From Chiloscyllium plagiosum (lineage: Eukaryota): a stretch of DNA of 64,000 nt. Positions 6,830 to 58,425 of the stretch are shown in pieces. The DNA is taken from positions 8,906,221-8,970,220 of the forward strand of contig NC_057719.1 of assembly GCF_004010195.1 (NCBI RefSeq), read 5' to 3'. Numbering within the stretch: position 1 is the stretch's first letter; every line of letters starts with the position of its first letter. The notes beneath the pieces were generated by a model. The model was not told the origin of the DNA and did not search any database. It worked only from the letters and a program-made list of their open reading frames with translations. Made by a program: the position numbers and the translations under genes.

Positions 6830-7170
6830 CAGAGTGATGCTGGAAAAGCACAGCAGCATCCGAGGAGCAGGAAAATCGACGATTCGGGTAAAAGCCCTTC
6901 ATCGGGAATTGAGCTTTTTTTTTGAAGGAGGTAGAATCAGGCGATGCGGGGTTCCCAGATTACGAGGTTGGAAGCTGTGGGTGGGAGATCTCCTGAGGTG
7001 ATGAGGTTCTGTATGGTCTGGGAGATGATGGCTTGGTGATGGGGAGTGGGGTCAAGGTCGAGGGGGCGGTAGGAGGAGGTATCTTCGAGTTGGCACCTGG
7101 CTTCAGCGGTGTAGAGGTCAGTGCGCCAAACCACCACTGCACCCCCTTTATCTGCTGGTTTGATGGTGAT
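6830..7170 (-). mobile_element. Penelope-like element fragment: RT N-terminal region followed by pLTR with a degenerate hammerhead
   Basis: Minus strand reads ITIKPADKGGAVVVWRTDLYTAEARCQLEDTSSY..., containing the ADKG motif typical of PLE ORFs. The pLTR repeat at 6830-6910 has the same orientation. Confidence 0.85.
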
Positions 7171-8139
7171 TGACCAGGAGCCCAGATGTGTCAGTTAGTA
7201 GATGGGATGATGGATGAACGAGACTTGGAGCAAGTTATTTTACTGGTATGAATTTTTAACGAGGGCCAGTTTACGGAGGTTATGAAGTGGGACATCGGAC
7301 CGGAGAGGTCAGTCCCTCATATCGAATCAGTGGATAGAGATTGTGATGGCCCAGGCAATGCAACACAATCCTGAGAGAATTCCCAACCAACAGGCTGGAT
7401 CTAACTTAAAGCCCGAAAGAAATGCATCAAGAGATGGGAGAAGTCGAGCACAGAATGGTGGCCCATCCAGACTCTGCTGTTGATGTTTTTCTCCACCAGT
7501 CCGATACCCATCAACTGGGTGTTTCTCTCTGAAAGTGACAATTTAAATGATTCACTTCACCGATGATTAGTGCTGTAATTTGCCACTTTATGACCATCCT
7601 CAACAAGGACACAGTAATTGACTTTATCCCTTTCAGGCTGAGCAATGTTCTTCACCTTCAAACAACCTCATAGTCATATTTGCAAAAATTCTTTGGTGGG
7701 CGTCTCTGGCTGGGATTCCTTGCCCATTGCTAACTGGCCATGAGCAGGTGGTGGCAATGGTTGAAACCTCTTGAACCCACAGCAGTCTGCCTGGTGGAGG
7801 TAGAGCCAGTGTGTTAATTAGGAGGGAAATGGTTGCATGGAGGCTCAGAATCTTATTACGTTTCATTTGCACAAGGTAGAATAATGGGAGAAAATTCCAT
7901 CCTCAGGATGCCAATTTTTAAATTTTGGTTTAAGGATCCACAAACTAAATTGCAAAACTGTGTCAAGTCCTGATGTTGTGTGCAAGCGTCTGATATGAAA
8001 ACATTCTCACTGTTTTATTTTCCTTCAATCAAATAGTGTACTATCTCCCTAGGAGAGGAATGTCAGAAATACCAGCAATAGTTTGATTCCAGCAAGCTCA
8101 TGAATATTGCAACTGTATCAATCTTTTCCTGATATCACT

Positions 8140-8260
8140 CCCTCACTCACAGACACACACACTCACACCCACAGACACACTCACAGACACACACACAGAC
8201 ACATACAGACACACACACAGACATACACACACAGACACAGACACACAGACACCCACATAT
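8140..8260. repeat. (CA)n/CAGA microsatellite
   Basis: Simple repeat. Confidence 0.9.
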
Positions 8261-9009
8261 GCTGGCAGAGATTACTATCTGCATAGAACCGCAAGTAGAA
8301 ACAGAATCTCAGGAAGTGTAGCGCAGTGAGCTAATGACAAACAACAGAAGGAGGCTTGATACTTAGTAAATTACAGCCTGTAGGATGGTAATTGAAAGCA
8401 AAGGCAAGAGAAAGGTTGCTCGTAGATTGTTTGGGTCAGTGGTGGCCTGGCAATCAACAGTGCGCTTAATAGCTTTGTACCTTGTCATTTTCATTGTCAA
8501 CCATCACCCACAGCAAAGAAAAAACCTTGTCTCCCCTGCTGTGCTTTTCTCTCCCTTGTGCTGCACTGGACTGTCAAAACTGGGGACATTGGTGGCTTGA
8601 GGTCTTCAGTAGCTGAAGTGGGATATGTGTAGGATGAACTAAACAACAGATTTTAAACCTCTTTTAGCAGAGACAGGTCAACCAGGTCTTGTTCCCAGTT
8701 GGGAAGCTGATGGGATTGGGTGCATCGTTGCTTTTACACATCAACCCATTTTACTCTCAGTTAAAGGCCACAGTTAACATTGGATGTTTATTCCATACTT
8801 AATCAACAATCAGGTAAGTATACATAAAGCTTCAATAAAATCATTTTTAAAGGAATAATGCCTTTGGGGTTTATGCCTGTGTTAATTGGAGTTGCTTTTC
8901 AATATTTTGACACAATTAATTCTCTTTGGTAATGGTTAGTTGTAGAATACTTTCTGTAAGGAAGAATAACTATACAAGCCAGTTCAAAGCTAAGGTTATG
9001 GACTGAAAG

Positions 9010-9425
9010 GTTATAGAGAATGGAAACAGACCATTCAGTCCAACTTGTCCATGCTGATGAAACATCCCTATCTGATCTAGTCCCATTTACCAGCACTTGG
9101 CCCATATTCCTCTCAACTCTTCCTATTCATATACTCATCCTTTTAAATGTTGTAATTGTACCAGGCTCCACCATTTCTTCTGGCAGCTCATTCCATACAT
9201 GCACCACCCTCAGGTGCCTTCACCTGAAACCTATGCCTTCGAGTTTTGGACTCCCCCACTCCAGGGAAAAGCCCTTGGATATTTACCCAATCCATACCCC
9301 TCATAATTTTATAAACCTCTATAAGGTCACCCCTCAGCCTCCGATGCTCCAGGGAAAAAAACCCCAGTCTATTCAGCCTAACCCTATTCCTCAAACCCAC
9401 CAGACCCGGTAACATCCTTGCAATG
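9010..9425 (-). mobile_element. CR1 (HER1-type) LINE 3' fragment
   Basis: MLPGL..RLNRLGFFSLEHRRLRGDLIEVYKIMRG is the CR1 ORF2 C-terminus, followed by 3' UTR. Confidence 0.9.
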
Positions 9426-9989
9426 GTTTTATGACTGTGTTTCTGGCTCAGGCTAATATAAACTTAGGCTGACAAATGTGAAAATACTTGAAGTAAAAAG
9501 CCACAAGGAGACAACTATTTTTAAAAATGATTTAGATTTGCATGTAACTAGGTTGTGTATATTTGTTCTTTGTTAATTCATGGGATGTGGGGGCTACTGA
9601 CAAGGTCAGCATTTATTGGTAATCCCTAATTGACCAGCGAGCATTTATCGGTCAACCACATTGCTGTGGGCCTGAGGTCGCATGGAGGCCAGCCCAGGTA
9701 AGGATGGCAATTTCCTTCACATGAGTGAACCAGGTGGGCTCTGACAGCATAAATTTCATGGTCTTCATTAGACTCAGTACAAGAACTTTATTGAATTCAA
9801 ATTCCATCATCTGGCAGAATGGGACTTGAACCCATGATTCCAGAACATTTCCTGGAGTAGAGAACTTCAAAGAAGATGAGGGCAGGTGAAGGGAAAGTGT
9901 GAGCAGGGGTGGCACAGGAGCAAGTCAAGCGAGATCTTTTTTTGGACACTAATTCGTTCTTACAGCAAGTCAATGCACAAAGAAGAGCA

Positions 9990-12240
9990 GCTCTCACATC
10001 TCCTTTAAACTTACTCCCTTTTACCTTAAACCTATGTCCCTTGACATTTCTATCCTGGGGAAAGGTCTCTGCCTCTCCATTTTATCTGTGCCTCTCAGAA
10101 TAGTTGTAAACGTCTATCAGGCTGCCCTGACTCTTTCAAGTGAAAACAAGCCACAATCTTGCTTCATAGCTAATACCCTCCAAACCAGGCAACATCCTGT
10201 TAAATCAATTCTATAATCTCTTCAAAGCCTCCACATTCTTCTGGTCACACGATGACCAGAACTGTGCACAATATTCCAAATGTGGCCGAACCCAAGTTCT
10301 GCACAACAGCACCATCATTTGCCAATGTTTATACTCAATGCCCCAGCCGATGAAGGCAAGCATACCATATGTCTTCTTCACCATCTTATCCACTTGTGGT
10401 GCTGTTTTCAGGCAACTGTGGACTTGTACACTCAGATTCCTCCATATGTTGATGCCAGTAAGGGTTCTGCCATTTGCTGTACACTTCTCTCCTGCATTAG
10501 ACCTTCCCAAAATGGATCACCTCGTATTTCTCTGCCATTTCTCTGCCCAACACTCCAGCCTATTTTTTGAATCAACCTGTTCAGAGCTGGTATTACACAC
10601 CTCTGGAGCAGGTGGATCTTGAACCTGGGCCTCCTGACCCAGGGGTAGGGACACTACCCAGTGCAACACAAGACACATAGTTCCAATGACCTGCTGTATC
10701 CTCTGGCAATCCTCCTCACTATTCGCAACTCCCCCAATTTTTGTGTTGTCCGCAAACTTACTAATCAGACCACCTACATTCTCCTCCAGATCATTTATAT
10801 ATTCTATAAAGAATGGGGTCCCAGCACTGTTCCCTGTGGGATACCACTGGTCACAAATCTCCAGTCAGAAAAATAATTTCACTGCTACTCTTTGTCTTCT
10901 ATGACCAAGTCAGTTCTCTATCCATCTTACCAGCTCACCACAGACCCCATTACAGTTCTGAGGAAGGGTCACTCGACCCACAACGTTAACTCTGATTTCT
11001 CTCCACAGATGCTGCCAGATCTGCTGAGCTTTCCCAGTGATTTTTGCTCCCATGTGACTTCACCATTTCTACCAGCCTACCATGAGGGTTCTTGTCAAAG
11101 GCCTTGCTAAAGTCCATGTAGACAACATCCACCACTCTGCCCTTAATCATCTTTGTCACTTCCTCAAAAAACTCAATCAGTTTGTGACACACAATCTCCC
11201 CTACACAATGCCATGCTGCCCATACTTTTTCAAATGTGACTAAATCTTGCCCCTGAGAATTTTCTCCAATAATTTTCCTGTGACTGATGTAAGGCTCACT
11301 GGCCTCCAATTGCCTGGATTATCCTTGCTGCTCTTCTTAAGCGAAGAAGCAACATTGGCAAATCTCCAATCCTCTAGGGCCTCTCCTGTGACTAAAGAGG
11401 ATACAATGATTTCACACAACGTCCCACCAATTTCCTGACCCGCCTCCCTCAGCATTCTGGGATAGATTCCATCAGGTCCTGGGGACTTGTCTACCTTCAT
11501 GCTTTTCAGAACACCCAACACCTCCTCCTTTTCTTCATTGACATGTTCCAAAATATCAACATACCCTTCCTATGACTCACCATCCATTATGCCATTCTCC
11601 AAAACAAGGTTTTGTTACAGACCTCACCCACTTCCTCTGGGTCCCTGCAAAAATCCCCTCTTTGCCTCTGACTGGATCGACCCTTTCCTTAGCTACCATC
11701 TTGCTCCTTATGCATGTATAAAAAAACCTTGGGATTTTCCTTAATGCTATATACCAAAGACATTTCATGGCTCCATTTCGCTCCCCTAATACCTTGCTTG
11801 AGTTATTTCCTAACATTTTCCTACCTTCAAGGGCTCTGTCCGTCTTCAGCTTCCTAAACCCTTGTATGTCTCCTCTTTCTTCTTGACGAAGCTCATAGTT
11901 TCTCTTGTCATCCAAGGTTCCTGAATCTTGCCATCTTTATCCTTCATTTTCACAGGAAGATCCTGGCCCTGAACTCTAATGAATTGGCCTTTTAAAGATC
12001 CCCATTTGCCAGATGTGGATTTACCCAAAACAACCAACCCCGAATCTACATTCCCCAGTTCCTGCCAAATATTGTCACAGTTAGCCTCTCCCCAGTTTAG
12101 TACATTCACCCGACTTATCCACTCTTATCTATAAGTGACCTAAAACTTAGGAAATTATGGCCACTGTTCCTGAAATGCTTCCCCATTGAAATTTCAATCT
12201 CCTGGCCAGGATCATTTCCCAGTATCAGATTTAATGTGAC
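9990..12240 (-). mobile_element. Decayed CR1 LINE ORF2 (linker, RT, C-terminus) interrupted by smaller insertions
   Basis: Frameshifted motifs KSPGPDGIYPRML, DNPGNWRPVSLTSV, VDVVYMDFSKAFDK and VRPHLEYCAQFWS. Confidence 0.9.
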
Positions 12241-12242
12241 TC

Positions 12243-12815: not shown

Positions 12816-12874
12816 GTGAGACTCCTTACCTAGATGGACTACATGTAATTGAATGCAACAAAAGTTCCATCCAC

Positions 12875-13090: not shown

Positions 13091-13094
13091 ATTG

Positions 13095-14565
13095 TATAAC
13101 AAATTTCCCGAGACTGCCTTTAACAAACCATTCCCATCTTCTCTCCATGCAAACTCCCATTTTGCAGCGAGAACAACCATTGGAATGTGGTGAGGGCACA
13201 GGATCACACCAGTTACTGTCATTCACTGTAATTCCACACTGTAATCCGACAAGTCCACTGGGGCTGGTCCATCCCTCGTTGAAAAGACATCCACTAGTGG
13301 CGGGGTTATTAGAATTGGCGGATGCTCAAGCAGCCAGGGCTAGGGGAGTGTAGGAACCAAAGAGCTGGAAGACCCAAGGGCAGAGAAAGATTCAAAGACA
13401 TGGGTGAGATTTTACAAGAGGATGTGTTGATCGACCAGGACCCCACATACGTCAATGCGTGGATGGGGGCAATGGATGAACTTGACTTGGTTCTCCATGC
13501 AAACTCCCATTTTGCAGCGAGAACAACCATTGGAATGTGGTGAGGGCACAGGATCACACCAGTTACTGTCATTCACTGTAATTCCACACTGTAATCCGAC
13601 AAGTCCACTGAGGCTGGTCCATCCCTCGTTGAAAAGACATCCACGAGTGGCGGGGTTATTAGAATTGGTGGATGCTCAAGCGGCCAGGGCTAGGGGAGTA
13701 TAGAAACCACAAGAGCTGGAAGACCCAAGGGCAGAGAAAGATTCAAAGACATGGGTGAGATTTCACAAGAGGATGTGTTGATCGACCAGGACCCCACATA
13801 CGTCAATGCATGGATGGGGGCAATGGATGAACTTGACTTGATGCGAGTTCCTTTATAGGTAACAGGATTTTCAATGAGCTCAAGCTTACGGACATGATAA
13901 AGTGGGACACAGCCTGGACAGTACAGTCTCTCATTAGAATCAGCTGGTAGAGACTGTGTTGGCAATACATTACCATCTTCAAAACAAAACTTCCAACTCA
14001 CAGTCTCTTCGAAGAGACCATTCATTTTTGGCATGTCGATTTTCAACATGGCACAAGGGCATAGGACGGACACCGCAGATTGCACACGCATTACGCCAGC
14101 TGTGACCTCTGACCCATGCCCCCACCACCCACAATTCCCATTACCACTGGTTTCAATTCTATTTCGGTGGCAGTGAGCAAATCGTCCCCCGTCCCATGTC
14201 TGCGCTGACTGTACACTGAGAGAATAATCCTCCACCCCTTCCTAACTGCAACACAAGCTTCAGCATCTATTTTCTTAAAGTCATCCTTGTAAAACAACAG
14301 CAATGTTTCTTCTGCAGACAATCTCCAATGAAAATCAACAAACTGAACCTGATTGAGGCTAGGAGCCAGGGCTGGGGTGGGAAGGGATTGCAACCCAAGG
14401 AAATCCCAATGTTTTTTTTTAAGCCAGTCCGATTTGCTGACCCGATCTTTGAAGTATTTTGACGCACAAGTCCTGAAGGTAGGAAAACTGCCAAATCCCG
14501 AGCAACCCATTTCTGGGACTGCTAGTTGAAAACACCAAGCTCGCTACAGACAGGACTTGGGGTGT
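13095..14565 (-). pseudogene. Degraded coding-like insert of unknown origin; candidate endogenous viral element
   Basis: Non-repetitive segment with overlapping minus-strand ORFs (14091-14510 and 13690-14235) and a further Cys-rich frame. N-glycosylation sequons are present and there is no intron structure. See findings. Confidence 0.4.
13142..13840. repeat. Tandem duplication, 2 x ~350 bp
   Basis: 13142-13489 and 13492-13840 are near-identical, with scattered substitutions and a net 1-bp indel. Confidence 0.97.
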
Positions 14566-14579
14566 TGTGGGAGCAATTT

Positions 14580-14780
14580 CCTGCAGATGCTGGAATTTGT
14601 ACTGAAAACAGAAAATGCTGGAGATCACAGCGGGTCAGGCAGCATCTGTGGAGAGTGAGAAAGCTAATGTTTCAAGTCGAAGCTTATGGCTTCAAGTCAG
14701 CCCTGATGAAGCGTCATCGAGACTCGAAACGTTAGCTTGCTCTCTCTTTCCATGGATACTGCCCCACCTCCTTGGGGAAT
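14580..14780. mobile_element. Penelope pLTR-derived repeat with a hammerhead-like core at 14703-14735 (+)
   Basis: ctgatga-agcgtc-atcga-gactc-gaaac-gttagc. Confidence 0.7.
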
Positions 14781-15612: not shown

Positions 15613-15906
15613 CACAGGTATCACAGATCACAGTATCCCAATTCACATGTATCCCAATTCACAGTTATCTTAGTTCACAGGTATCACAGATCACAGTATC
15701 CCAATTCACATGTATCCCAATTCACAGTTATCTTAGTTCACAGGTATCACAGATCACACTATCCCAATTCACAGGTTCCCAGTTCACAGTTATCTTAGTT
15801 CACAGGTATCACAGATCACACTATCCCATTTCATACGTATTCCAGTTCACAGGTATCACAGGTTACAGGTTTCCCAGTTCACAGTTACCATAGATCACAG
15901 TTACCA
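15613..15906. repeat. 63-bp-unit minisatellite built of ~16-bp subunits
   Basis: Unit starts (cacaggtatcacagatcaca) at 15613, 15676, 15739 and 15801, then the array decays. Confidence 0.92.
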
Positions 15907-17703: not shown

Positions 17704-17754
17704 AGAGAGTATGGACAATGAGAAAGTTCAAGACAGCAATTAAAAAAGTAAAGA

Positions 17755-17875
17755 TTAGAATGGTGCTGGAAAAGCACAGCAGGTCAGGCAGCATCCGAGG
17801 AGCAGGAAAATCGACGTTTCGGGCAAAATCCCTTATTCAGGACTCTGATCTTTAGCAGTCCTCACTTTCACCTAG
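17755..17875 (-). mobile_element. Penelope pLTR-derived repeat with a degenerate hammerhead core
   Basis: gctggaaaagcacagcaggtcaggcagcatccgagg family; the CUGAUGA box is mutated. Confidence 0.75.
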
Positions 17876-19139
17876 CAACAAAAAAAGCCTGACTGTCTTG
17901 GTACAGCTGGGTATCGAAGTCTCAGTTGAGGAGTTTAGCAAAGCTGTTCACTCACCTGTCGTGGTCAAACGTCCAGGTATTGATGCTTTACTGTCTGAAC
18001 TTATCAAGTATGAAAACCAGCTCTCTTGCTGGTCAGACTGAAAACCTAAATCCACATTCCCATTTACCCCAGATAAGTTTGCACCCCTTTGCTTACCAAG
18101 TATCTAAACACCCTCACCATAAAAGTATACCAGGGCCATGTTTTCAAATCCTTTCACAAACAGAGTTCAAACTTGAACAGAGAAAAATTAATCACCTTGT
18201 CTCTCAGGTGGCACGGTAGGTCTGTGGTTATCGCTGCTGCCTCACAGCACCGGGGACCCAGGTTTGATTCCAGCCTCAGGCGACTGCCTATGTGGGATGT
18301 TGCTGCCAAGTCTTAGTGGGGAAAGGCCTCTGAAGTTAAATTGGGGGTCTGTTCAGTTATTGGACCCTCCTAATGCCTTAAATGTATTTAAACATTGTAT
18401 GTGTAAGAGGGTTTTTTGGATAGAGTCAAACTCCAATGATTTGTTCTGAAAACCATAAATGCTGGAGATCAGAGCGGGTCAGGCAGCATCCATGCAGAGA
18501 GAGCAAGCTAATGTGTTGAGTCGAGATGATACCTCATCATGTTTTGTTTGTTTTCTTGATTTGAAACTGTACAGAATGGAACTGCCTGTCTGCATAGATA
18601 TATATGCAATTTTTTTAATGAATCAAGTATATTTTTGAAAAAAAACAAGGACTGTCTGTATGGAGTTTGTGCGTTCTCCCCATGTCTGTGTGGGTTTCCT
18701 CCGGGTGCTCTGGTTTCCTCCCCCAGACCAAAGATGTGCAGGTTTGATGGATTGGCAATGCTAAAATGCCCATAGTGGTCAGGGTAGGTGGATTAGCCAT
18801 GGGAAATGCAGGGTTATGGGGATAGGGCAGGGACTGGGTCTGGACAGGATGCTTTTTGAAGGGTAGCTGTGGATGACTGGTGTCCTTCCAAACAGTAGGG
18901 ATTCTATTTTAAATTGGCAGCTCTCAGTTATAATCTGTCACCCTTAAAAATTGGGATTCTTCCATAATAGGAAACATCCTCTTCCCATCTATCCTGTCAA
19001 AAGTTCGCAGAATCTAATATATTTTATTCAGACTACAAGCCGAAACTGTCCAACATTTCCTCGTGAGTAATCCCATCCCATTTCAGGTAAAACTTCTCGG
19101 AACTGCTTCCAATGGTTTTCACCATTCCATTACTTGCAA

Positions 19140-21010
19140 CATAGAGTCAGAGATAAACAACATGGAAACAGAGCCTTAGGTCCAACCTGTCCATGCCAAC
19201 CACAGATCTGAAATAAATCTAGCCCCATTTGCCAGCACTTGGCCAATATCCCTCTAAGGATATGGGCCCTCCTTCGACTGACCGAACTGGTCCTCACCCT
19301 GAAACTCAAAGCACTCCGCTTCTTCCTTTCCCGCCGTACCACCCAGTACCCTTCCACCGACACCCTCCTTCGACTGACCGAACTGGTCCTCACCCTGAAC
19401 ATGTAATTGTATCAGCTTCCACCACTTCCTCTGGCAACTCATTCCATACATGCACCACCCTCTGCGTGAAAATGTTGCCCCTTTGGTCCCTTTTAAACCT
19501 TACCCTTTTCACCTGAAATCTATGCCCTTTAGTTTTGGACTCTCTTACTCTGGGGAAATAACTTGTCTATTTATCCTATCCATGCCCCTCATGACTTTAT
19601 AAACCTCCATAAGGTCACCCCTCAGCCTCTTACGCTCCAGGGAAACAACCCCAGCCTATTCAGCCTCTCTTTATCGCTCAAACCCTCCAAGCTTGTAACA
19701 TCTTTGTTAATCTTTTCTGAATCCTTTCAAGTTTCACAACATCCTTCCTGTAGCTTGGAGACCAGAACTGAACTCAGTATTCCAAAAGTGGCTTAACCAG
19801 CGTCCTGTACAGCCGTAACATGACCTCCCAACTCCTGTACGCAATGTACTGACAAATAAAGGAAAGCATACCAAATGCTTTCTTCACTATCCAATTGACC
19901 TGTGACTCCATTTTCAGGAAACTATGAACCTGCATTCCTCAGCAATACAGCCCAGGACCTCACCATCAAGTGTGTAAGTCCTGCTCTGATTTACCTTTCC
20001 AAAATGCAGCACCTCGGATTTATCTAAACTAAACTGCATCTGCCACTTCTCAGCCCGTTGGCCCATCTGATCAAGATCCGTCGTAATCTGTCCATTACAC
20101 CTCCAATTTTGGTGTCATCTGCAAATTTAGTAACCATACTTCCTACCTTCACATCCAAATCACTTATATAAATTATGAAATGAAGGAGACCAATACTGCA
20201 CACAATACTCCTGATGTGTTCTTAACATTGCCCTGTGTAACTGAAGCACAATTTCTCTATTTTTGTGTTCAATTGCCCTCATGATAAATGATGACATCCT
20301 ATTCGCTTTCCAAGCAACTTGCAGCACCTGTGTACTAGCCATTTGTGTTTCATGCACCAGGAGACACAGATCCCTCTGCATTGCAGAGTTCTGTAATTTC
20401 TCACCATTTAGCCAATATAATTCTTGTTTATTCTTTCTGTCAAAATGGATAATTTCACATTTTTCCACTTTATACTCCATCTTTGCTATTTACATTTGGC
20501 TTGAAGGGCTGAATGGCCTACTCCTGCACCTATTTTCCATGTTTCTACGTTAGCCTATCAATAAATTTTGCAGCTTTGTTGTGTTCTCTTTACAACTTAC
20601 TTTCTGGCCTACCTCAGTATCATTGGCAAATCTGACAACCACACCTTCTGCCCCTTCAGTTGAGTCATTTGTGTAAATTGTAAGCAGTTGAGCTCCCAGC
20701 ACACCATTCATTTAATCTTACTAACCTGAAAGGGACCGGATTATGCCCATTCTCCAGTTCCTCAGCTAATCTCCTATCCATGCCACTATGCTAACTCATC
20801 AGCTTTTATTTTGCACGGTGATTTTTGATGTGGCACCTTACCAAATGCCTTTAGAAGCACAGTACATCCACCAATTCCCCTTCATTCACTGCAAATGTTA
20901 CTTCCTCAGAGAACTCCAATAGATTGGTCAGACATGATGGCCCTATCACAAAGTCATTTTGACTCTGGTTGAATGAATTGAACTGATTCAAGTGTCGCTA
21001 TAACTTCTTT
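19140..21010 (-). mobile_element. Cluster of decayed CR1 LINE fragments from at least two subfamilies
   Basis: CR1 3' UTR at 19140-19260 and ORF2 motifs KCEIIHF, QRDL..LVHE and EYCVQYWSP. Confidence 0.85.
19267..19400 (+). mobile_element. Penelope RT micro-fragment with an internal 37-bp duplication, embedded in CR1
   Basis: Reads LKALRFFLSRRTTQYPSTDTLLRLTELVLTLN (PLE RT). ccctccttcgactgaccgaactggtcctcaccctgaa occurs twice. Confidence 0.7.
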
Positions 21011-26690: not shown

Positions 26691-27677
26691 TACTATAAAC
26701 CGACCGACTCCCACAGCTACCTAGACTTCACCTCCTCCCACCCTGCCCCCTGTAAAAACGCCATCCCATATTCCCAATTCCTTCGTCTCCGCTGCATCTG
26801 CTCCCAGGGGGACCAGTTACAATACCGTACAACCCAGATGGCCTCCTTCTTCAAAGACCATAATTTCCCCCCCAGANNNNNNNNNNNNNNNNNNNNNNNN
26901 NNNNNNNNNNNNNNNNNNNNNNNNNNNNNNNNNNNNNNNNNNNNNNNNNNNNNNNNNNNNNNNNNNNNNNNNNNNNNNNNNNNNNNNNNNNNNNNNNNNN
27001 NNNNNNNNNNNNNNNNNNNNNNNNNNNNNNNNNNNNNNNNNNNNNNNNNNNNNNNNNNNNNNNNNNNNNNNNNNNNNNNNNNNNNNNNNNNNNNNNNNNN
27101 NNNNNNNNNNNNNNNNNNNNNNNNNNNNNNNNNNNNNNNNNNNNNNNNNNNNNNNNNNNNNNNNNNNNNNNNNNNNNNNNNNNNNNNNNNNNNNNNNNNN
27201 NNNNNNNNNNNNNNNNNNNNNNNNNNNNNNNNNNNNNNNNNNNNNNNNNNNNNNNNNNNNNNNNNNNNNNNNNNNNNNNNNNNNNNNNNNNNNNNNNNNN
27301 NNNNNNNNNNNNNNNNNNNNNNNNNNNNNNNNNNNNNNNNNNNNNNNNNNNNNNNNNNNNNNNNNNNNNNNNNNNNNNNNNNNNNNNNNNNNNNNNNNNN
27401 NNNNNNNNNNNNNNNNNNNNNNNNNNNNNNNNNNNNNNNNNNNNNNNNNNNNNNNNNNNNNNNNNNNNNNNNNNNNNNNNNNNNNNNNNNNNNNNNNNNN
27501 NNNNACCTATCACATTTCCAACGCCCCTCCCCCAAGTCCCTCCTCCCTACCTTTTATCTTAGCCTGCTGGACACACTTTCCTCATTTCTGAAGAAGGGCT
27601 CATGCCCGAAATGTCGATTCTCCTGCTCCTTGGATGCTGCCTGACCTGCTGCACTTTTCCAGCAACACATTTTCAGT
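26691..27677 (+). mobile_element. Penelope-like retroelement (RT C-terminal region, gap, 3' pLTR with hammerhead core)
   Basis: YKPTDSHSYLDFTSSHPAPCKNAIPYSQFLRLRRICS precedes the gap. After the gap, ctgaaga-agggc-tcat-gccc-gaaa lies at about 27588-27612. Continuity across the gap is assumed. Confidence 0.85.
26877..27504. other. Assembly gap
   Basis: Run of N. Confidence 1.
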
Positions 27678-29649: not shown

Positions 29650-29745
29650 GGAATTCCTGATGAAGGACTCTGGCCCGAAACGTTGATTCTCCTTCTTCTT
29701 GGATGCTGCCTGACCTGCTGTGCTTTTCTAGCAACACACTCTCAA
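29650..29745 (+). mobile_element. Penelope pLTR-derived repeat with hammerhead-like core
   Basis: ctgatga-aggac-tctg-gccc-gaaac-gttgattc. Confidence 0.75.
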
Positions 29746-30989: not shown

Positions 30990-31135
30990 TTTTATTCAGG
31001 AATTCCTGATGAAGGGCTTTTGCCTGAAACATCGATTTTCCTGTTCCTTGGATGCTGCTTGACCTGCTGTGCTTTTCCAGCACTATTCTAATCTTGACTC
31101 TAATCTCTAGCATCAGCAGAACCCACTTCCACCTC
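30990..31135 (+). mobile_element. Penelope pLTR-derived repeat with hammerhead-like core
   Basis: ctgatga-agggc-tttt-gcct-gaaac-atcgat. Confidence 0.8.
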
Positions 31136-32185
31136 GTTTTTTTTTGTTAATGAGGGAATCAAGGCTATGGAGAAAAGGCAGGAAAGTGCAGTTAAGGATT
31201 ATCAAATCAGCCATGCTCTCATTCAATGGCAGAACAGACTTGATGGGCCGAATGGCCTATTTCCGCTCCTACATTTTACGGTTTGTCCCCCAGAGTGGGA
31301 TAGAAGTCAATGATGAAAGCTTGTCCAATTGCCTCAGTACATCTTGCCCATTTAGGAAACAACTGCTTCTGAGAAAAAAAGCAAATATTGTGGATTCTGG
31401 AAATTTGACATTTATCAGGTATTGGTAAGAAATTTGGGGTGTTTGGAGTTTCGAGAAGTCCTGCTGAATGTAAACCTGCACCACCGCCTTGAGTGTGGGT
31501 GGTCTCCATTTTTGTTGTTGACCACAGGAGATAGGTTATGTGTTGGTATGTCTCCAACTCCAATACAAAATCTCTCTAGCTGGATCCCTTACTCCCAGTT
31601 ATAAGTTGTAGTTTTAGGAAACAAAAAAAAAACATTATGGGGTGCATTGTTGAGGCTAACAAAATCAAGTACAGCATGTCACGACTGGAAAAAGAAGGGG
31701 AAGTCGACTTTTAAAGTGATCGCTTTTTGGGAGGGGGTTAGTCTGTAAAAATGGGGTTTCCCATTGACCTGAATCAATTTATAAGCCACAATCTGCAGCA
31801 AAAATGCAGATAGAAGGTTCTGGAAACAGTCAGCTGGTCAGGCGGCATCTCAGGAGTGAGAAATCTGTTTCTCTCTCTCTCTCTCTCTCTCCTCTGACAC
31901 TGATGTGGCGTTTCTTGTTCACTTTCTTAATAGATGTCTTGACTATGCTCCCCAGCAATCTATCCCAACTGACCAATCTATCCCTTGTGCGAAGGCAGAG
32001 TTCCTGTTATTCAAAAATCAGGAGATATCCCTTCTTCTGACTCTGTTTTAATATGATGGCAAGGTCTAGACACAAATCACTTCAGGTTCATAGAATCGTA
32101 GAATCGCTACAATGCAGAAAGAGGCCATTTGGCCCACTGGGTCTGCACTGACCCTCCAAAGAACGTGAATAGAGAGTTGTCACTT

Positions 32186-37319: not shown

Positions 37320-37450
37320 TTTCTGAAGAAAGGCTTATGCCCGAAACATCGATTCTCCTGCTCCTTGGATGTTGCCTGACCTGCTGTGCTTTTCCAACAA
37401 CACATTTTTAAGCTCTGATCTCCAGCATCTGCAGTCCTCACTTTCTCCTA
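37320..37450 (+). mobile_element. Penelope pLTR-derived repeat with hammerhead-like core
   Basis: ctgaaga-aaggc-ttat-gccc-gaaac-atcgat-tc. Confidence 0.78.
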
Positions 37451-37698
37451 TACAGCTTCAAGTCACCAGCAGCATTTTTCAGATAATGCATTGGCACAAA
37501 AGAGCATTAATTTTAGGAAAGACGACTGAGGAATGGCTTGTTTAAGGCCTCAAAGGTTATGGAAGGTAGAGTTCACAAAAAAACTGCTGTGTTACAAGTC
37601 CAGTAACACAAACACCCATATTAATGATCCAAAGGAGACCAGTTCCAATCCTAGCCTGGCACTTTGAGAATTTAAGTTCCAACCAACCAAGACTACAA

Positions 37699-38009: not shown

Positions 38010-38010
38010 T

Positions 38011-38112
38011 AAAATATGGAATGCTTCACGAATTTGCTTGTCATCCTTGTGCAGGGGCCATGCTAATTTTCTCTGTATTGTTCCAATTTTAGTATAAGTG
38101 CTGCCGAAGCAA
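38011..38112 (-). pseudogene. RNU6: U6 snRNA retrocopy, missing about the first 4-6 nt
   Basis: Minus strand GCTTCGGCAGCACTTATACTAAAATTGGAACAATACAGAGAAAATTAGCATGGCCCCTGCACAAGGATGACAAGCAAATTCGTGAAGCATTCCATATTTT. ACAGAGA box present; about 6 substitutions versus vertebrate U6, several at CpG sites. Confidence 0.95.
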
Positions 38113-40311: not shown

Positions 40312-40804
40312 AAGGGGAAAGATTTAAAAAGGACACGAGGAATAAGCATAAGCTCTTTCACGCAGAGGGTGGTGTGTGTGTGAAATGAGCTGCCAGAACA
40401 AGTGGTAGAGGTGGCTGTAACTACAACATTTAAAAAATATTTGACCGGGTACATGAATAGCAAGGGTTTAGAGAAATATGGGTCAAACACAGCCAAATGG
40501 GATTACTTTAGTTTCGGATACCTGGACGAGTTGGACAGAAGGGTCCTGGTTCCTTGCTGTATGAATCTATGACTCTAAAATTGACTTGAGTGAAGAATGG
40601 TTTCTTAAAATTATCCAGTCCTAAATGACCAATCTTTTCTTCCAAGACCACAATCCTAGCCACAGGTGTCCTCCAAGCAGTGAACAGTTTCTCAGCATTT
40701 ACCAAGTCAAGCCCTTTAAGAATTTTATATGTTTCAACAAGGTCAGCACACATTTCCAATCTCCAGGGAAGTCATCTTGTTGATACAATGTCATCTCATA
40801 GGAT

Positions 40805-40955
40805 GTCATGATTTGGAGGTGCCAGTGTTGGATTGAGGTGTACAAAGTTACGAATCACACAACACCTTCATCACCTGATGAAGGAGCAGCCCTCTGAAAA
40901 CTAGTGCTTCCAGTTACACCTGTTGGACTATAGCCTGGTGTTGTGTGATTTGTAA
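40805..40955. mobile_element. Palindromic PLE-derived repeat (same family as 42464-42680), decayed
   Basis: ctgatgaaggagcagccctctgaaaactagtgcttcc core plus inverted arms. Confidence 0.75.
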
Positions 40956-42463: not shown

Positions 42464-42680
42464 TAAAGTTAAAAATCACACAACACCAGGTTATAGTCCA
42501 ACAGGTTTAATTGGAAGCACACTAGCTTTCGGAGTGACGCTCCTTCATCAGGTAACTATCACCTGATGAAGGAGCGTCGCTCCGAAAGCTAGTGCTTCCA
42601 ATTAAACCTGTTGGACTATGTTGTGTGATTTTTAACTTTGTACACCCCAGTCCAACACTGGCATCTCCAAATCATGACGA
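42464..42680. mobile_element. Palindromic PLE-derived element with a hammerhead-like core on each strand
   Basis: Inverted arms of about 90 bp around aactatc. Plus-strand core ctgatga-aggagc-gtc-gctcc-gaaa at 42563-42587; mirror core at about 42526-42551. Confidence 0.8.
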
Positions 42681-48030: not shown

Positions 48031-48845
48031 AACATTTATTACCTTCAAGAAAAGATAGAAGATTGAGGAGATGCACAGTACAAAGATGGAGGGAGATAAC
48101 CCGACTTTTAACAGGGCCTTTTCACTTTGGGATGGGAGCTATTGTATTTGAACCATAAGATTGTAACAGTAAACTCTGCCTCTTTACTGGTTCCCCAGAT
48201 TTCCTGTTGCTTTTGAACAGGGTAAACAGAACTGCCATGCCTCCCAGTTCAGTCAATATCCCCATAGCTGGGTATAGTGCCTCTCCTGTCTATATGGGGC
48301 CACAGATGAATAGTTCTATTTTAATTCTTCCGTAGATGTGGACATTGCTGGGAAGGCCAGTGCTCACTGCCCATGCTGGCAATCTCAAATAAAAGCAGAA
48401 AGTGCCGGAGGGACTCAGCAGGTCTGGCAGCATCTGTACAGAGTGGAACCGAGTTAAAAGACTTCTTCAGAACTGAGAGTTCTGAACAGGAACTCCATAC
48501 TGGACCTGAAACTTTAACTTGCTTTCTCTCTCCTTGGATGCTGTCAGACCTGTTGAGTTTCTCCAGCATTTTCCCTGCTTTTATTCATTGTCACCCCAGA
48601 TTGTGCACGGGTTCAGTGCTTTGCCAGGGCTATTTCAAAGGGCAGTTAAGATTCAACCACATTGTTGCAGATTTCCGTCCCTCAAGACTTCAATGAACTA
48701 GATGGATTTTTACAGAGTTACAGAGTCATACAGCATTGAAGCACACTATTCGGTCCACCTAGTCCATGACAAACAAGTTTCCCAAACTAAACTAGTCCCA
48801 CTTGCCTGCATTTGAACCATATCTGTCTCAACTTTTCCTATTCAT

Positions 48846-48940
48846 GTTGAGGGTGTGGTGCTGGAAAAGCACAGCAGGTCAGGCAACATCCAAGGAGCAA
48901 GAGAATTGACGTTTCGGGCACAAGCCCTTCATCAGGAATT
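48846..48940 (-). mobile_element. Penelope pLTR-derived repeat with an intact hammerhead core
   Basis: Minus strand ctgatga-agggc-ttgt-gccc-gaaac-gtcaattc. Confidence 0.82.
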
Positions 48941-49169
48941 CCACATTCTTACTACTTCCTCATTCCACATACAAACTACCCTCTATATGAAAAAGTTGCC
49001 TTCAGGTTCCTTTTAAATAGAATTACAGAGCTGTACAGCACGGAAACAGACCCTTCAGTCCAACTCGTCCATCCTAACTTAATCTAGTCCCATTTGCCAG
49101 CACTTGGCCCATATCCTTCTCAGCCTTTCCTTTTCATATACGCATCCAGATGCCTTTTAAATGTTGGTC

Positions 49170-49262
49170 AAAGAATGTGGTGCTGGAAAAGTGCAGCTGA
49201 TCAGGCAGCATCCGAGGAGCAGGAGAGTCGACGTTTTGGGCACAAGCCCCTCATCAGGAATG
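49170..49262 (-). mobile_element. Penelope pLTR-derived repeat; hammerhead core with GAAA changed to AAAA
   Basis: Minus strand ctgatga-ggggc-ttgt-gccc-aaaac-gtcgac, inserted in a CR1 3' fragment. Confidence 0.8.
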
Positions 49263-49407
49263 TTGCAATTGTACCAGCCTCCACCACTTCCTCTGGCAGT
49301 TCATTCCATACAAGCACCACCCTCTACAAGAAAAGGTTGCCCTTTAGGTCCCTTTTAAATCTTTCCCCCTCACCCTAAACAATATGCCCTCTGGTTTTGA
49401 ACTCCCA

Positions 49408-49701
49408 CACCTTTGTCCTGCCAATGAGTGTCAGCTGAAACTAACTGATTTATTTTCCAGTAGAACTAAGCACAGAAACAGTAAGGCTAAAGTGAATTCC
49501 CAAAGTACAAGTGAGAGTATATATCTTCCACAGTTCAATAACCTGTGAGGCTTTCGGACAACTGTCTTTCACAGACTTCCCAAAACAGTGTCATATGTGA
49601 CAAATTTAACATTATAGGAAAGCGGAATGAATTATATTGAGGAAAAATCTCCACTATATATTCCAAAGCTTAAGCTCCTGAGAGTCAAGATGCCCATCAA
49701 A
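49408..49701. repeat. Right arm of the inverted duplication, embedded in a CR1 fragment
   Basis: Reverse complement of 47735-48030; CR1 sequence resumes on both sides. Confidence 0.93.
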
Positions 49702-53119: not shown

Positions 53120-53283
53120 TTATCTCTCCACCCTGGAGGCTCCCTGCCTCCATTCCTGATGAAGGGCATTTGCCCGAAACATCAATTTTCCTGCTCCTCA
53201 GATGCTGCCTGACCGGCTGTGCTTTTCCAGCACTACTCTAATCCAGACTCTGATTTTCAGCATCTGCAGTCCTCACTTTTGCT
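53120..53283 (+). mobile_element. Penelope pLTR-derived repeat with an intact hammerhead core (53156-53180)
   Basis: ctgatga-agggc-attt-gccc-gaaac-atcaattttc. Confidence 0.82.
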
Positions 53284-53844
53284 TATATATTTCTAAATAC
53301 TACATGCTCTATAACAGACTCCAACATTTTCCAATGATGCTGACTGTTTCTGTTTGTCTCTTCTCCTTTTGAATTAAGAAACAAATGTATTTAATCAGAG
53401 GAAATCAGTGCGTCTCCAGCAAGAAGATCTCGGAGCAGTGAGAGACGGTGTCTTGTTTGAGACAGGTGGTGTAAGAGAAGAATTTTTAAAAATGTCCAGA
53501 TGTGTTGTTTTGATGAGGACCTTATCCTCGAGGAATCAACAAGAAAAGCCTCCTTCCGTCATCAGCTCCATTTCTAAGAAGCTTCCTTATACGGAATGTC
53601 CCACTGTGTAGAGCATCACATGATCAAGCACATGCCATTCACAGTTTCTTTCCAATTACCGCGAGTCACTGGACACTGCTGAGGATTGACGATTGTCTCC
53701 TCCCTATGCTGGGAGTATCAACAATCATTACAGACCTGACAATATGATCCAATGAAACCTCCAGTCCCGAACTTTTAATCAAAGGCTTCTTCTGCTCATT
53801 CCTGTCACTGCATCCAGAGACTGAAGCTTAGGCATTTCTGCCTA

Positions 53845-54945
53845 TCCCAGCTCTCTCCCCAGGGATTGAAACTGAGATATTCCCAGTCTATCCCAGCCCT
53901 GTTCCCAGGGATTGAAGCGGAGAAATTCCTAGTCTCCTCCAACCCTGCACCCCAGAGATTGGAGCTGAGATATTCCCAATATATCCCAGTGCAGTTCTGA
54001 GGGATTGTAGCTGAGATATACCCAGTTTATCATAGCTCTATTCCCAGGGAATGAAACTGAGATATTCCCAGTCTGTCCCAGCTCTATTCCTAGAGATTGA
54101 AGCTGAGACATTCCCAATTTATCCCAGCACTGTTCTGAGGGGTTGTAGCTGAGATATTCCCAATTTATCCCAGCACTGTTCTGAGGCATTGTAGCTGAGA
54201 TATTCCCAATTTATCCCAGCACTGTTCTGAGGGATTGTAGCTGAGATATTCCCAATTCACCCCAGCGGGTGTCTGAGGAATTGTGGCTGAGATATTCCCA
54301 GTCTATCATAGCTCTATTCCCAGAGTTTGTAGCTGGGACATTCCTAGTGTCGAGAGTGTGGTGCTGGAAAAGCACAGCAAGTCAGGCAGCAACCGAGGAA
54401 CAGGAGAGTTAATGCTTCGGTCAAAAGCCGTTCATCCTGCTCCTCGGATGCAGTCCTCACTTTCACTGGGATATTCCTAGTCTATCCCAGCTATAGTACC
54501 AGGCATTGAAACTTGGATATTCCTCATCGTGTGGGCAGCACGGTGGCACAGTGGTTAGCACTGCTGCCTCACAGCGCCATGAGACCCGGGTTCAATTCCC
54601 GACTCAGGCGACTGACTGTGTGGAGTTTGCACATTCTCCCCGTGTCTGCGTGGGTTTCCTCCGGGTGCTCCGGTTTCCTCCCACAGTCCAAAGATGTGCA
54701 GGTCAGGTGAATTGGCCATGCTAAATTGCCAGTAGTGTTAGGTAAGGGGTAAATGTCGGGGTATGGGTGGGTTTCGCTTCGGCAGGTCGGTGTGGACTTG
54801 TTGGGCCGAAGGGCCTGTTTCCACACTGTAAGTAATCTAATCTAATCTAATCTATTTTAGCTCTATCCCCAAGGATTGAAACTGGGATATTCCCAGCCTA
54901 CCCGAGCTCTATTCTGGGGAACTGGAGCTGGGATATTCTCAATGT
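53845..54945. repeat. 46-bp-unit minisatellite interrupted by a PLE repeat (54348-54465) and an HE1 SINE
   Basis: Unit ctgagatattcccaatttatcccagcactgttctgagggattgtag and variants. Confidence 0.9.
54531..54854 (+). mobile_element. Full-length HE1-type V-SINE, young
   Basis: Nearly identical to 17381-17703. Confidence 0.92.
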
Positions 54946-56243: not shown

Positions 56244-56432
56244 TGGGAGAAAGTGAGGACTGCAGATGCTGGAGATCAGAGTTGAGAGTGTATTGCTGGA
56301 AAAGCACAGCAGGTCAGGCAGCATCCGAGCAGCAGGAAAATCAATGTTTTGGGCGTAAGCCTGAAACATCGATTCTCCTGCTCCTCAGACGCCGTCTGAC
56401 ATGCTGCACTTTTCCAGCACCACACTCTCAAA
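56244..56432. mobile_element. Fold-back (head-to-head) PLE pLTR-derived repeat
   Basis: Inverted arms gctggaaaagcacagcaggtcagg... and ...cttttccagcaccacactctcaa joined at the stem-II position. Confidence 0.78.
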
Positions 56433-56529
56433 TCAGATTTAAAATGAGCAACTGATCTACTGTTTGTCGAACAGAGTTCCAAATCTCAACCACCGTTGTG
56501 CTTCAATAAGCCATCTCTTTTTAACTTTT

Positions 56530-57330
56530 GTATTTACTCATGGGACATGGGCATTGCTGCCTGGCCAGTAGTTATTACCCATCCCTAGTTGCCCTTGAGA
56601 AAGTGGGGGTGAGCTGCCTTCTTGAACCACTGCAGTCCATCTGTTGCAGGTTGACCCACAATGCCATTAACTAGGAAATTCCAAGATTTTGACCCACCCT
56701 CAGTGAAGGAATGGTGATATATTTCTGGTGAGTGACTTAGAGGGGAACTTGGAGGTAGTGTTGCTCCCTTACATCTACTGCCCTTGTCATTCTAGATGGA
56801 AGTGGTCAGGGGTTTGGAAGGTGCTGTCTGTGAACCTCTGGTGAATTTCTGCTGTGCACCTTGTAGATAGTGCACACTGCTGCTAACAAATTGGCAATGC
56901 TGGGGAGAGTGGATGCTTGCAGATGAGGTGCTGATCAAGCGGGCTACTTTGTCCCGGATGGTGTCAAGCTTCTTGCGTGTTGTTGGGGCTGCACCCATCC
57001 AGGCAAGTGGAGAGTATTCCATCACACTCCTGATTGGAGATGGTGAACAGGTTTTGGGGAGTCAGGATGTGAGTTATTTGCTGCAGGATTCTTGATCTCT
57101 GACCTGCTCTTGAGGCCACTGTAATCATATGGCTAGTCCAGTTCAATTTCTGGTCAATGGTAACTCCAAGAATGCTGACAGTGGGGTTTGGGTTCAGTGA
57201 TGGTCACTTATTGAAGATGGTCATTGCCTGATATTTGTATGGTGTGAATGTTACTTGCTAATTTTCAGTCCAAGCCAAGATATTGTCCAGATTTTGTTGC
57301 ATTTGGACATGGACTGCTCCAGACCATTCT
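56530..57330 (-). mobile_element. Second CR1-group LINE family, 3' fragment
   Basis: MEYSPLAWMGAAPTTRKKLDTIRDKVARLI plus 3' UTR. Confidence 0.82.
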
Positions 57331-57455
57331 AGTAACTTTGGCTGACGGATAAAGAAGGGACATGACTCAGCTATGATGCCCTCCAAGTGTGAATAGCCAA
57401 CTGATGTTCATTAATGCCACTCACAATCTGCAAATTCTCAAATGAGGAGGCCCAG

Positions 57456-58085
57456 TGTTATGATCCAGACCAAACCAACCACCATAAAATATATTAAAAA
57501 GATAGTCTATATGTTAACATGTTGCTATTTTAAAGTTAAAGGCAAGGTGTTGCACTTCAGGTGCAATTCGATTTGTCAAATTACTTGACTTAAACACACT
57601 TTATTTTTACACTACAGTTAAACTACAGACAAAATGAAAAGAAAAGAATTGGCTTAATTGTAACTGTATCAAAATGCTTAACAAAATAATAGATATATAT
57701 TAACTAAACTGTTCCAATATAGTAACATCTCATAAATACACCCTGGGCAAAGGCAAATTCAGTAAAATAGATTGTTTCACATGCAGTTTCTAGCAGCAGG
57801 ATGAGAACCCCAGCTTTTAGCTGTGACAGAGAGAGGAATAATAGTTTCCACATCCATCTTTAAGATCCCAGCAACTGGTGAAAGCTAAACATTCCTGGTT
57901 CTGTGGGAGCTTGACTCCCACCCATTCAGGCTACTTCTATTGTTCCACTTTTTAAAAAAATTCCCCAAGGCCTCACAAGCTGTTTACTTTATTGGCTTTG
58001 GAACAGATTGCTCTCCACCTCTGTATCAATATTTCTTCATAAAAAAAGAACAAAATATACCTCTTAAAACCATTGTACCATCACA
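57456..58085 (-). mobile_element. Probable solo LTR (~630 bp)
   Basis: TGTTATG...CATCACA termini, 4-bp flanks ccag/ctag (one mismatch), and AATAAA on the minus strand near 57600. Confidence 0.5.
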
Positions 58086-58267
58086 CTAGGTATAAACTGG
58101 GCAAGAGAGACATGTAACAAACATAAAAACAGTACACATTAGCAGAATTTAAATGTCTTCATGGGAGACATCTTTAAGTGGAGCTCTCAAATGGCCAACT
58201 TAGATGCCTTCAATAAATACACCACAAAAGTTGTCCAAAGCTCCAGACAAACTGCTCTATTTCTTTA

Positions 58268-58425
58268 AAAACTGAAAGAACTGCAGATGTAGTGAATCTG
58301 AAACAAAAATAGAAATTGCTGAACAGTTCTGAGGAAGTGTCACCGGACCCGAAACGTTAACTCTGACTTCTCTCCACAGATGCTGCCAGGAATGCTGAGC
58401 TTTTCCAGCAATTTCTGTTTTTGTT
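58268..58425. mobile_element. PLE pLTR-derived repeat with a hammerhead-like core at about 58329-58365 (+)
   Basis: ctgagga-agtgtc-accg-gaccc-gaaac-gttaac-tc. Confidence 0.75.

Follow-up and report, generated by a model that had tools for sequence, protein, structure and literature searches.

Minimal hammerhead motifs in a carpet-shark-like genomic window as probable short insertions of endonuclease-bearing Penelope-like elements

Hammerhead-like cores are scattered over the 64-kb stretch of DNA analysed here (the window), which raises the question of whether they constitute a mobile system of their own or are by-products of another element. The first-pass annotation had read them both as minimal type I hammerheads of Penelope-like elements (PLEs) and as a high-copy, retrozyme-like non-autonomous system. 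The first reading stands: the motifs are very probably minimal type I hammerheads belonging to the pseudo-LTR of endonuclease-bearing PLEs, and the short units that carry them (stubs) are probably short insertions made by the PLE protein that have decayed neutrally. The second is not supported, as the window contains no tandem units, no arm clearly begins at the cut site, intact motifs are limited to 2 of the 19 scored copies (17 have a defect), and cores decay like their neighbours. The host genome is carpet-shark-like and this kind of sequence has already been described in many animals. Globally, the system is a dense, well-preserved case of a described class and not a separate retrozyme system.

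All 12 strict and three degenerate motifs listed beforehand are present at their place and on their strand, with two corrections: the motif at 49257 (minus strand) displays AAAA instead of GAAA, and the core of the degenerate motif placed at 6900 is in fact at 6905 (minus strand). The core at 17840 also lies on the minus strand. One listed core is found per 4.3 kb, in agreement with the announced density of about one per 4–5 kb. A full descriptor of the minimal type I hammerhead (core, 4-bp stem II after one unpaired base, palindromic 15.2/16.2, NUH and 2-bp stem I) retrieves, with at most two defects, 14 sites in the window, all from this list, versus a mean of 0.64 and a maximum of 3 in 25 third-order Markov controls. 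With at most one defect, nine sites are retrieved versus none in the 25 controls, and with no defect two versus none. The descriptor fits, within two defects, 14 of the 15 listed motifs; the remaining one (core 6905) has three. The list itself was incomplete, since profile HMMs, which detect no arm in the reversed window, reveal 29 arms grouped in 22 units.

Other searches were negative. An Rfam search up to E 10 returned no hammerhead family among its 14 window matches, as expected of minimal motifs, so that this is not evidence against them. No canonical type I hammerhead with loop 1–loop 2 contacts was recognised (no Rfam match; stem I of 2–4 bp). By free-energy folding, a hammerhead dimer was the best structure in none of the four copies tried, and the exact degenerate pattern of family A (see below) had no match in metagenome contigs or in viral contigs.

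The NUH triplet is found in all 19 scored copies, whereas the core is complete in 11, the palindrome in 9 and the four pairs of stem II in 9. The first two pairs of stem I are present in 13 copies; the 10.1–11.1 pair is G-C in 13 and G-U in three more. Stem I of family A is weak (two pairs, a U-U mismatch and one pair). The majority motif of the family is intact, and the family consensus forms both stem I and an NUH site; failure to do so, together with lack of cleavage as monomer or dimer, had been named beforehand as what would overturn the first-pass reading. The palindrome of stem III is ACGU (families A, C and D) or AGCU (family B), as proposed, and overlaps the final A of GAAA. Two other palindromes proposed after GAAA are to be read differently: AUCGAU is a CpG-decayed form in which the palindrome is broken, and GUUAAC spans the cut site.

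The proposal of at least four subfamilies with covarying stem II is borne out by four families (A–D), which differ from one another through compensatory changes in all three stems. Pair 2.1–1.1 is C-G in A and B versus U-A in C; pair 2.2–1.2 is U-A in A and C, A-U in B and C-G in D. Between families, the third pair of stem II is G-C or A-U, the fourth C-G, G-C or U-A, and stem III C-G or G-C. The arms of stem I form 2.4 of four pairs within a family versus 1.4 of four across families. In GcGUC/GACUC at 14703, however, which had been given as pairing, pair 2 of stem II is a mismatch. Families C and D resemble A in sequence. An ORF start within the module was considered and set aside, as subfamilies differ at that place by a 5-base indel. 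From one DNA run, 41,994 contigs align to one 241-bp family A copy; their common letters restore G1.1, and G16.2 is restored in about one-third of the depth.

Two copies had been described as attached to PLE reverse transcriptase (RT) sequence. The attachment is direct at 6830–7170, but that at 26691–27677 exists only across a 628-N gap, which separates the RT thumb (26691–26876) from motif 27588. The RT piece at 6919–7173 derives from the region just before the RT core and includes the DKG region and one in-frame stop; about 1.5 kb of coding sequence is skipped where it joins the module. Identity to PLE proteins of the bamboo shark Chiloscyllium punctatum is 86% and 83% for RT pieces and 78% for the thumb; the two short RT pieces alone gave no Pfam match. 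One C. punctatum protein, which matches the top hit at 91% identity along half of its length, has CX2-5CxxC followed by a GIY-YIG-like motif. Of 177 relatives retrieved, 81 have the GIY-YIG-like motif, and 78 of these display the same succession. The CX2-5CxxC linker is given as a mark of Neptune and Nematis in the consulted part of Craig 2021 (PMC8557442). The DKG motif lies within the window, and the linker and endonuclease are seen only in close relatives; the source elements are thus probably endonuclease-bearing PLEs of Neptune type, a label that covers Neptune and Nematis without separation by a tree. The 64-kb window contains no full-length element with both pseudo-LTRs. Of the four families, A alone has a connection to RT: its motif lies downstream of RT in two copies, once through a chimeric joint and once across the N gap. 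Families B, C and D are putatively assigned to PLEs through their common anatomy, C and D also through their likeness to A.

Table 1. Insertion units and related sequences in the window (coordinates from its first base)
Feature	Position	Strand	Details
Family C head-to-head pair	1050..1205		Without full core
Decayed family C head-to-head pair	3255..3437		Absent from earlier list
Decayed C-like arm	6330..6408	+	Begins in stem II
Family A unit	6817..7167	-	PLE RT piece fused directly to hammerhead module; core 6905 (position of C3), 3 defects; 7-bp flanking duplication
Family C module	10952..11045	+	Core 10958; G12 and A13 changed; no duplication detected
Family D head-to-head unit	14585..14765		Core 14703 on plus arm; other arm (minus) begins in stem II, bears tail
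Family A module	17749..17880	-	Core 17840; inverted tail before it; 7-bp A-rich duplication
Decayed family D module	18450..18540	-	Absent from earlier list
Third PLE RT scrap	19281..19400	+	Internal 37-bp duplication; no hammerhead attached
Longest copy, family A	26691..27677	+	RT thumb, 628-N gap, 83 bp pyrimidine-rich natural upstream, core 27588, tail absent
Family A module	29652..29745	+	Core 29657; short fold-back at 5' edge
Family A module + tail	30994..31135	+	Core 31006; 14-bp palindrome at 5' edge; 10-bp T-rich duplication
Weak arm	31812..31863	-	Without motif
Family A module + tail	37321..37453	+	Core 37323; start 2 bases before core; 10-bp duplication
Family B unit	40802..40954		Inverted tail arm + direct arm with core 40875; 9-bp duplication
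Family B head-to-head pair	42467..42679		Both motifs intact (no others are), cores 42551 (-) and 42563 (+); one arm bears tail; 10-bp duplication
Decayed family C head-to-head pair	48367..48576		Cores 48470 (-), 48482 (+); absent from earlier list
Family A module	48848..48941	-	Core 48935; within LINE 3' fragment
Family A module	49167..49258	-	Core 49257, G12 changed; 7-bp duplication; within second LINE 3' fragment
Family A module + tail	53122..53283	+	Core 53156; 34 bp natural upstream; 9-bp duplication; reference for read alignment
Family A module	54349..54472	-	Start inside core; inverted tail + body piece before it; 9-bp duplication
Family A head-to-head pair	56246..56432		Stem II is inversion centre; tail on one arm; 14-bp duplication
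Family C module	58283..58430	+	Core 58329; inverted 3' end + tail before it

The 22 insertion units (Table 1) are built of short modules, about 90–95 bp with the motif at the head, optionally followed by a tail of 35–40 bp; stubs total 2,980 bp, i.e. 4.7% of the called bases of the window. The end of the family A tail (pyrimidines then AG) was considered as a splice acceptor, a reading rejected as B and C tails end otherwise. An inverted partner is found in 10 of the 22 units, the tail being on one arm. Target-site duplications of 7–14 bp flank 10 of the 18 units tested (at least 7 bp in 10 of 18 versus 8–10% in controls; at least 9 bp in 7 of 18 versus 1–2%); this search detected none at the four family C units, the single family D unit and two family A units tested. 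Same-strand neighbouring motifs are 322 bp to 24 kb apart. The closest two, 48935 and 49257, were considered as a retrozyme dimer, a candidate discarded because each is an insert in its own LINE 3' fragment, and these fragments are only 68% alike.

The 5' ends pile up 0–6 bases before the catalytic core. Fold-backs of at least 4 bases are found at 7 of 18 5' edges (control mean 2.0, p = 0.003), a count that includes two inverted-pair junctions and in which three core positions are one base off. DNA depth rises 2.6-fold at 53152 over the preceding bin, which fits the pile-up but is not counted as proof, because other subfamilies differ in upstream sequence and confound the comparison. Copies span the cleavage site rather than end there. 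Once inserted, cores decay as fast as neighbouring bases (6 of 100 in the core versus 12 of 170 downstream, p = 0.81; 18 of 80 at CpG).

These features can be joined into a mechanism in which the PLE protein would nick AT-rich DNA, nicking being taken from published work on other PLEs. Reverse transcription would start from two internal sites, about 60–65 or about 100 bases past the cut site, giving 3' ends without or with the tail. An uncleaved template would be copied back through the hammerhead, with a usual stop at its 5' edge, and the cDNA end would be joined through fold-back or microhomology, or else through a second cDNA primed in the opposite direction, the last producing head-to-head pairs. 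Inserted copies would then decay neutrally, and cleavage would probably be confined to the RNA of the full-length element. Motif anatomy, family covariation, unit boundaries, duplications, inversions, the one-arm tail, the Neptune-type RT link and decay are read directly from the data, whereas nicking, internal initiation, the use of uncleaved RNA, and dimer or protein-assisted cleavage come from the literature on other PLEs. A dimer result was reportedly obtained by Luense et al., according to a review. By analogy, we infer that the same insertion steps may be at work in the shark family.

The pile-up could also mark the true 5' end of the element RNA. Transcription would in that case begin at the 5' arm of stem I, on a sequence resembling a Pol II initiator (CAUU in family A, UCAC in B, CAGU in C and UCAG in D); in Drosophila virilis, by contrast, the start lies far upstream, by about 120 bases. 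The PLE protein would then initiate at the internal site of the 5' pseudo-LTR, not of the 3' one, stubs would be run-off cDNAs, and the hammerhead, by cutting about 33 bases downstream, would decap the element's own mRNA as a switch. This proposal is tentative and the balance lies against it; if true, it would explain the excess of solo minimal hammerheads over full elements and give PLE hammerheads a testable job.

Less likely still, some inserted short units might act, like SINEs, as uncleaved linear masters founding stub lineages apart from full-length elements. Indeed, 27 arms are stubs versus two longer copies, the same GGAAUUC 5' junction is found in three family A copies, and PLE cis sequences are described as mobilisable in trans in the available part of Arkhipova 2013 (PMC3846280). 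However, the simplest fold-back that the first bases of the module can form also yields this junction, the other 5' junctions vary (fold-back, inverted tail, RT chimera, direct start) as for independent truncations, and no foreign flank common to different copies was seen.

That the stubs, like retrozymes, are transcribed, cleave themselves as dimers, form circles and are then put back into the genome by PLE proteins is improbable. High copy number, uniform short length and their own target-site duplications would suit such a system, a few contig joints lead from a 3' end back to 53150–53154, and a 2026 preprint, as far as its accessible text goes, derives animal retrozymes from PLE pseudo-LTRs (Li 2026, 10.64898/2026.07.22.740005). 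However, none of the 35 Tandem Repeats Finder rows for the window is a tandem array with the motif; units are single or head-to-head inserts with their own target-site duplications, and no arm clearly begins at the cut site. Both intact copies are locked in the pair at 42467..42679, which folds into one long hairpin (−137.5 kcal/mol), and RNA reads lie on both strands, 99% continuing into unrelated flanks. No common read start or end was listed in one poly(A) RNA run, a weak test as such a library is blind to small circles. Finally, host-retained regulatory ribozymes are scarcely credible: family reads do occur in RNA (1,770 of 12,955,460 records of one run), but cores are kept no better than neighbouring bases, nearly all scored copies are defective and no host exon was recognised nearby by eye.

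Short PLE insertions thus remain the preferred reading, and the stubs, which may form a sizeable share of carpet-shark repeat content, offer a rich natural archive of how PLEs insert step by step. The role of the hammerhead in endonuclease-bearing PLEs is stated as unclear in the part of Craig 2021 (PMC8557442) available to us; if the 5' pile-up is a transcript start, this question becomes directly testable with the shark copies.

The motifs resemble the min-HHRs of Cervera and de la Pena 2014 (PMC4209133), as presented in the sections consulted: type I without loop 3, palindromic 15.2–16.2, short stem I, one unpaired base before stem II and G10.1–C11.1. As there, several consensus families coexist in one genome, mostly as single copies with some opposite-strand pairs, and min-HHRs are known from fish Neptune, Poseidon and Xena. 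Stem II is, however, 4–5 bp in the shark window versus 7–8 bp in Schistosoma, and the density of the window is far above the 2,000–9,000 per genome given in those sections, where sharks go unnamed.

The insertions resemble those of endonuclease-bearing PLEs (Arkhipova 2013, PMC3846280; Craig 2021, PMC8557442; consulted in part) in their heavy 5' truncation, inverted 5' copy, palindromes at the inverted junction, solo pseudo-LTRs, 30–40 bp tail on one end and 8–10 bp duplications. The pile-up of truncation points at the 5' edge of the hammerhead, displayed by the shark stubs, is unreported in the consulted parts of both papers; a literature search on truncation at the hammerhead found no title. 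The anole Poseidon PAc (Frangieh 2024, PMC11167929, in the portion available) likewise displays two alternative 3' ends that define the tail, and AT-rich targets. Internal initiation, the tail and an uncleaved hammerhead template are demonstrated for PAc, but PAc is a Poseidon, whereas the shark elements, described here from sequence, are of Neptune type.

With animal non-LTR retrozymes (Cervera and de la Pena 2020, PMC7229834; Li 2026; both seen in part), the stubs share their non-coding nature, a type I hammerhead and kinship to PLE pseudo-LTRs; retrozymes and solo monomers are found in vertebrates including one cartilaginous fish (Li 2026). However, as these sources describe them, retrozymes are head-to-tail tandems of 150–450 bp units, each of which has a hammerhead, mostly canonical, and they are expressed as circular RNAs, whereas the shark stubs are solo or head-to-head and carry minimal motifs.

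All of the hammerhead motifs listed in the first-pass annotation were found in the 64 kb window (GC 43%, two N gaps), in which SINE-like and LINE-like repeats are plentiful. A descriptor of the minimal type I hammerhead (min-HHR) of Penelope-like elements (PLEs) matched it at 2 sites without defect, 9 with at most one and 14 with at most two, whereas 25 Markov sequences gave 0, 0 and 0.64 sites. All 14 sites were already listed, and the 15th listed motif (core 6905, minus strand) has three defects; an Rfam search of the window matched no hammerhead model. Family profiles detected 29 module copies (arms) in the window and none in the reversed window, which junction reading resolves into 22 insertion units, one per 2.9 kb.

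Nineteen copies, read in a hand-set register, display in all families the same order: a short 5' arm leading into CUGANGA, then a single unpaired purine and stem II, then GAAA, 2 bases, U, H and a 3' arm. The four families are set apart by two-sided changes, which affect pairs 1-3 of stem I, pairs 3-4 of stem II and the pair of stem III; this bears out the earlier claim of at least four subfamilies with covarying stem II. As the copies fall into four families, this covariation represents a handful of events, not 19. Within a family, 5' and 3' arms pair at 2.4 of 4 positions (110 comparisons), versus 1.4 of 4 between families (232 comparisons).

Hammerhead families of the window
Family	Copies	Stem II	Palindrome	Predicted cut after	Stem I
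A	10	GGGC/GCCC	ACGU	GUC	UC/GA, then U-U, then A-U
B	3	GGAGC/GCUCC	AGCU	CUA	CAC/GUG
C	4	GGGUC/GACCC	ACGU	GUU	AGUU/AACU
D	2	ending GACUC	ACGU	GUU	with AGCU

Positions of reverse transcriptase (RT) pieces and other features in the window
Position	Strand	Feature	Remark
6937-7170		RT piece	matched span of the piece in the next row; identity 86% and 83% (proteins of Chiloscyllium punctatum) and 71% (Stegostoma); protein matches put the window close to bamboo sharks
6919-7173		RT piece	joins family A module directly; ~1.5 kb of coding sequence skipped; within 7-bp duplication
26691-26876		RT piece	upstream of 27588 motif, correct order, 628-N gap between
56246-56432		head-to-head pair	inversion centre is stem II hairpin, which suggests a strand switch using stem II complementarity
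48714-49420		two adjacent LINE 3' fragments	hammerhead module at near-identical position in each; this LINE may contain a favoured AT-rich target
53842-54348		minisatellite	46 bp, 11 copies
54349-54472		module	inserted at end of this minisatellite
15613-15885		minisatellite	16/47/63 bp period
38010-38112	-	U6 snRNA copy	almost full-length, 100 bits, several changes, clipped 5' end; abuts SINE head, same strand
37690-38009	-	tRNA-like SINE	family presumably HE1/V-SINE
37690-38112	-	U6 plus SINE	may be chimeric retrocopy or two neighbouring inserts; no clear duplication seen at this junction
41514-42009		tandem array	51-52 bp unit (middle portion of this SINE family), 9.5 copies
35592-35766		tandem array	same unit, 3.4 copies
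30206-30446		young LINE 3' end	these four up to 96-98% alike; frames presumably CR1-like RT C-terminal
32182-32501		young LINE 3' end	
39661-40301		young LINE 3' end	
44858-45483		young LINE 3' end	
13142-13840		direct tandem duplication	349 bp, 97% identity; recent event or assembly artefact

Variation inside families is decay. Only 2 of the 19 copies pass all hammerhead tests and, among ten family A copies, departures from the majority affect 6/100 non-CpG core positions and 12/170 downstream positions (p = 0.81), with 18/80 at CpG positions. The only intact motifs lie face to face, at 42551 and 42563, and are predicted to fold into a single hairpin (-137.5 kcal/mol) that would hide both. 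In DNA-run contigs matched to the 53156 copy (n=41,994, at 88% likeness), G makes up 82% of depth at 1.1 and 36% at 16.2, and RNA reads on this copy carry G16.2 in 203/277 and 141/242 cases. The family sequence is therefore an intact motif, whereas the majority of copies in the window are defective.

Three RT pieces are present in the window. Of the two copies said earlier to be attached to PLE RT, one is indeed directly joined, by a template jump or a deletion, but the other is linked only across an N gap; families B-D have no RT attachment in the window. Relatives combine RT and GIY-YIG, a C. punctatum relative carrying a CX2-5CxxC linker and a GIY-YIG-like motif, and this linker occurs in 78 of the 81 proteins bearing such a motif (177 fetched). 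In the excerpts available, the linker is a mark of Neptune and Nematis (PMC8557442) and the linker-bearing clade recorded from vertebrates is Neptune (PMC4209133; Li 2026 preprint 10.64898/2026.07.22.740005), hence the provisional name Neptune.

The modules end ~90-95 bases past C3 (the core position) or after an additional tail of 35-40 bases; for the anole element (Poseidon element PAc), such a tail is accounted for by two internal RT start sites (PMC11167929, in part). Inverted structures make up 10 of the 22 units: seven head-to-head pairs, with the tail on a single arm, and three units led by an inverted tail. Among the 18 units examined for duplications (four were omitted, one beside an N gap and three overly decayed), 10 share a flank word of at least 7 bp and 7 one of at least 9 bp. 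The control rates were 7.8% and 1.0% among cross-unit pairs (n=306), and 9.9% and 2.0% among random pairs (n=3,000). All ten duplication-bearing units belong to families A and B, and two of the duplications are homopolymer-rich. These target-site duplications therefore indicate that the stubs inserted in stub form.

Judged by eye, 19 of the 29 arms start at -6 to +4 of C3, 5 in stem II and 3 further downstream (a class that three short inverted tails outside the 29 would enlarge), and two reach upstream, by 34 and at least 83 bases; for families C and D, starts are estimated from inverted partners and divergence among copies. None of the 29 clearly starts at the cut site, and therefore the templates were uncleaved or religated. 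Short fold-backs occur at 7/18 5' edges versus 2.0 by chance (including two inverted-pair junctions). Four of the 12 listed contig joints with inserted letters fall at 53150-53154. This 5' pile-up may have any of three causes. The end may be picked by fold-back or by annealing to ATT at the nick; the anole enzyme favours ATT (PMC11167929, in part), and at 49257 ATT is common to duplication and module. It is also conceivable, if rather doubtful, that the pile-up marks the transcript start of the element, the stubs being run-off products. Initiator-like words stand at the 5' edge in 4/4 families, although B and D fit the initiator consensus less well, and TCACT and ACATT are given as initiator-like for a rotifer PLE (PMC3846280, in part). 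However, the D. virilis start lies 46 bases upstream of a 75-base intron ending at helix I (PMC4209133, in part), and RNA reads on the 53156 copy (one poly(A) run) showed no common start. Finally, the enzyme or a bound protein may halt there.

In one poly(A) single-cell run with the same species label, 1,770 of 12,955,460 reads match, on both strands; 99% of them run on into other flanks, and no site where many molecules start or stop was seen. A second run yielded no matching reads and carries no weight. The pattern is consistent with passive read-through from scattered copies, in a library that small circles could escape.

The first-pass annotation had proposed a retrozyme-like, non-autonomous system. 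Animal retrozymes, as described in the excerpts available, are tandem repeats with one hammerhead per unit and a circular RNA (PMC7229834; Li 2026 preprint 10.64898/2026.07.22.740005). By contrast, none of the 35 tandem-repeat rows of the window contains the motif, and the nearest same-strand pair (322 bp apart) consists of two separate inserts; the neighbouring LINE 3' fragments that contain them are only 68% alike, and one insert has a duplication of its own. It is well supported that the window motifs belong to the minimal-hammerhead class of PLEs, already known in kind: they match the min-HHR of these elements, fish Neptune elements included (PMC4209133), inversion, single-arm tail and duplication are all on record for PLEs (PMC8557442; PMC3846280), and the anole element also uses an uncleaved or religated template in vitro (PMC11167929), according to the portions of these sources consulted.
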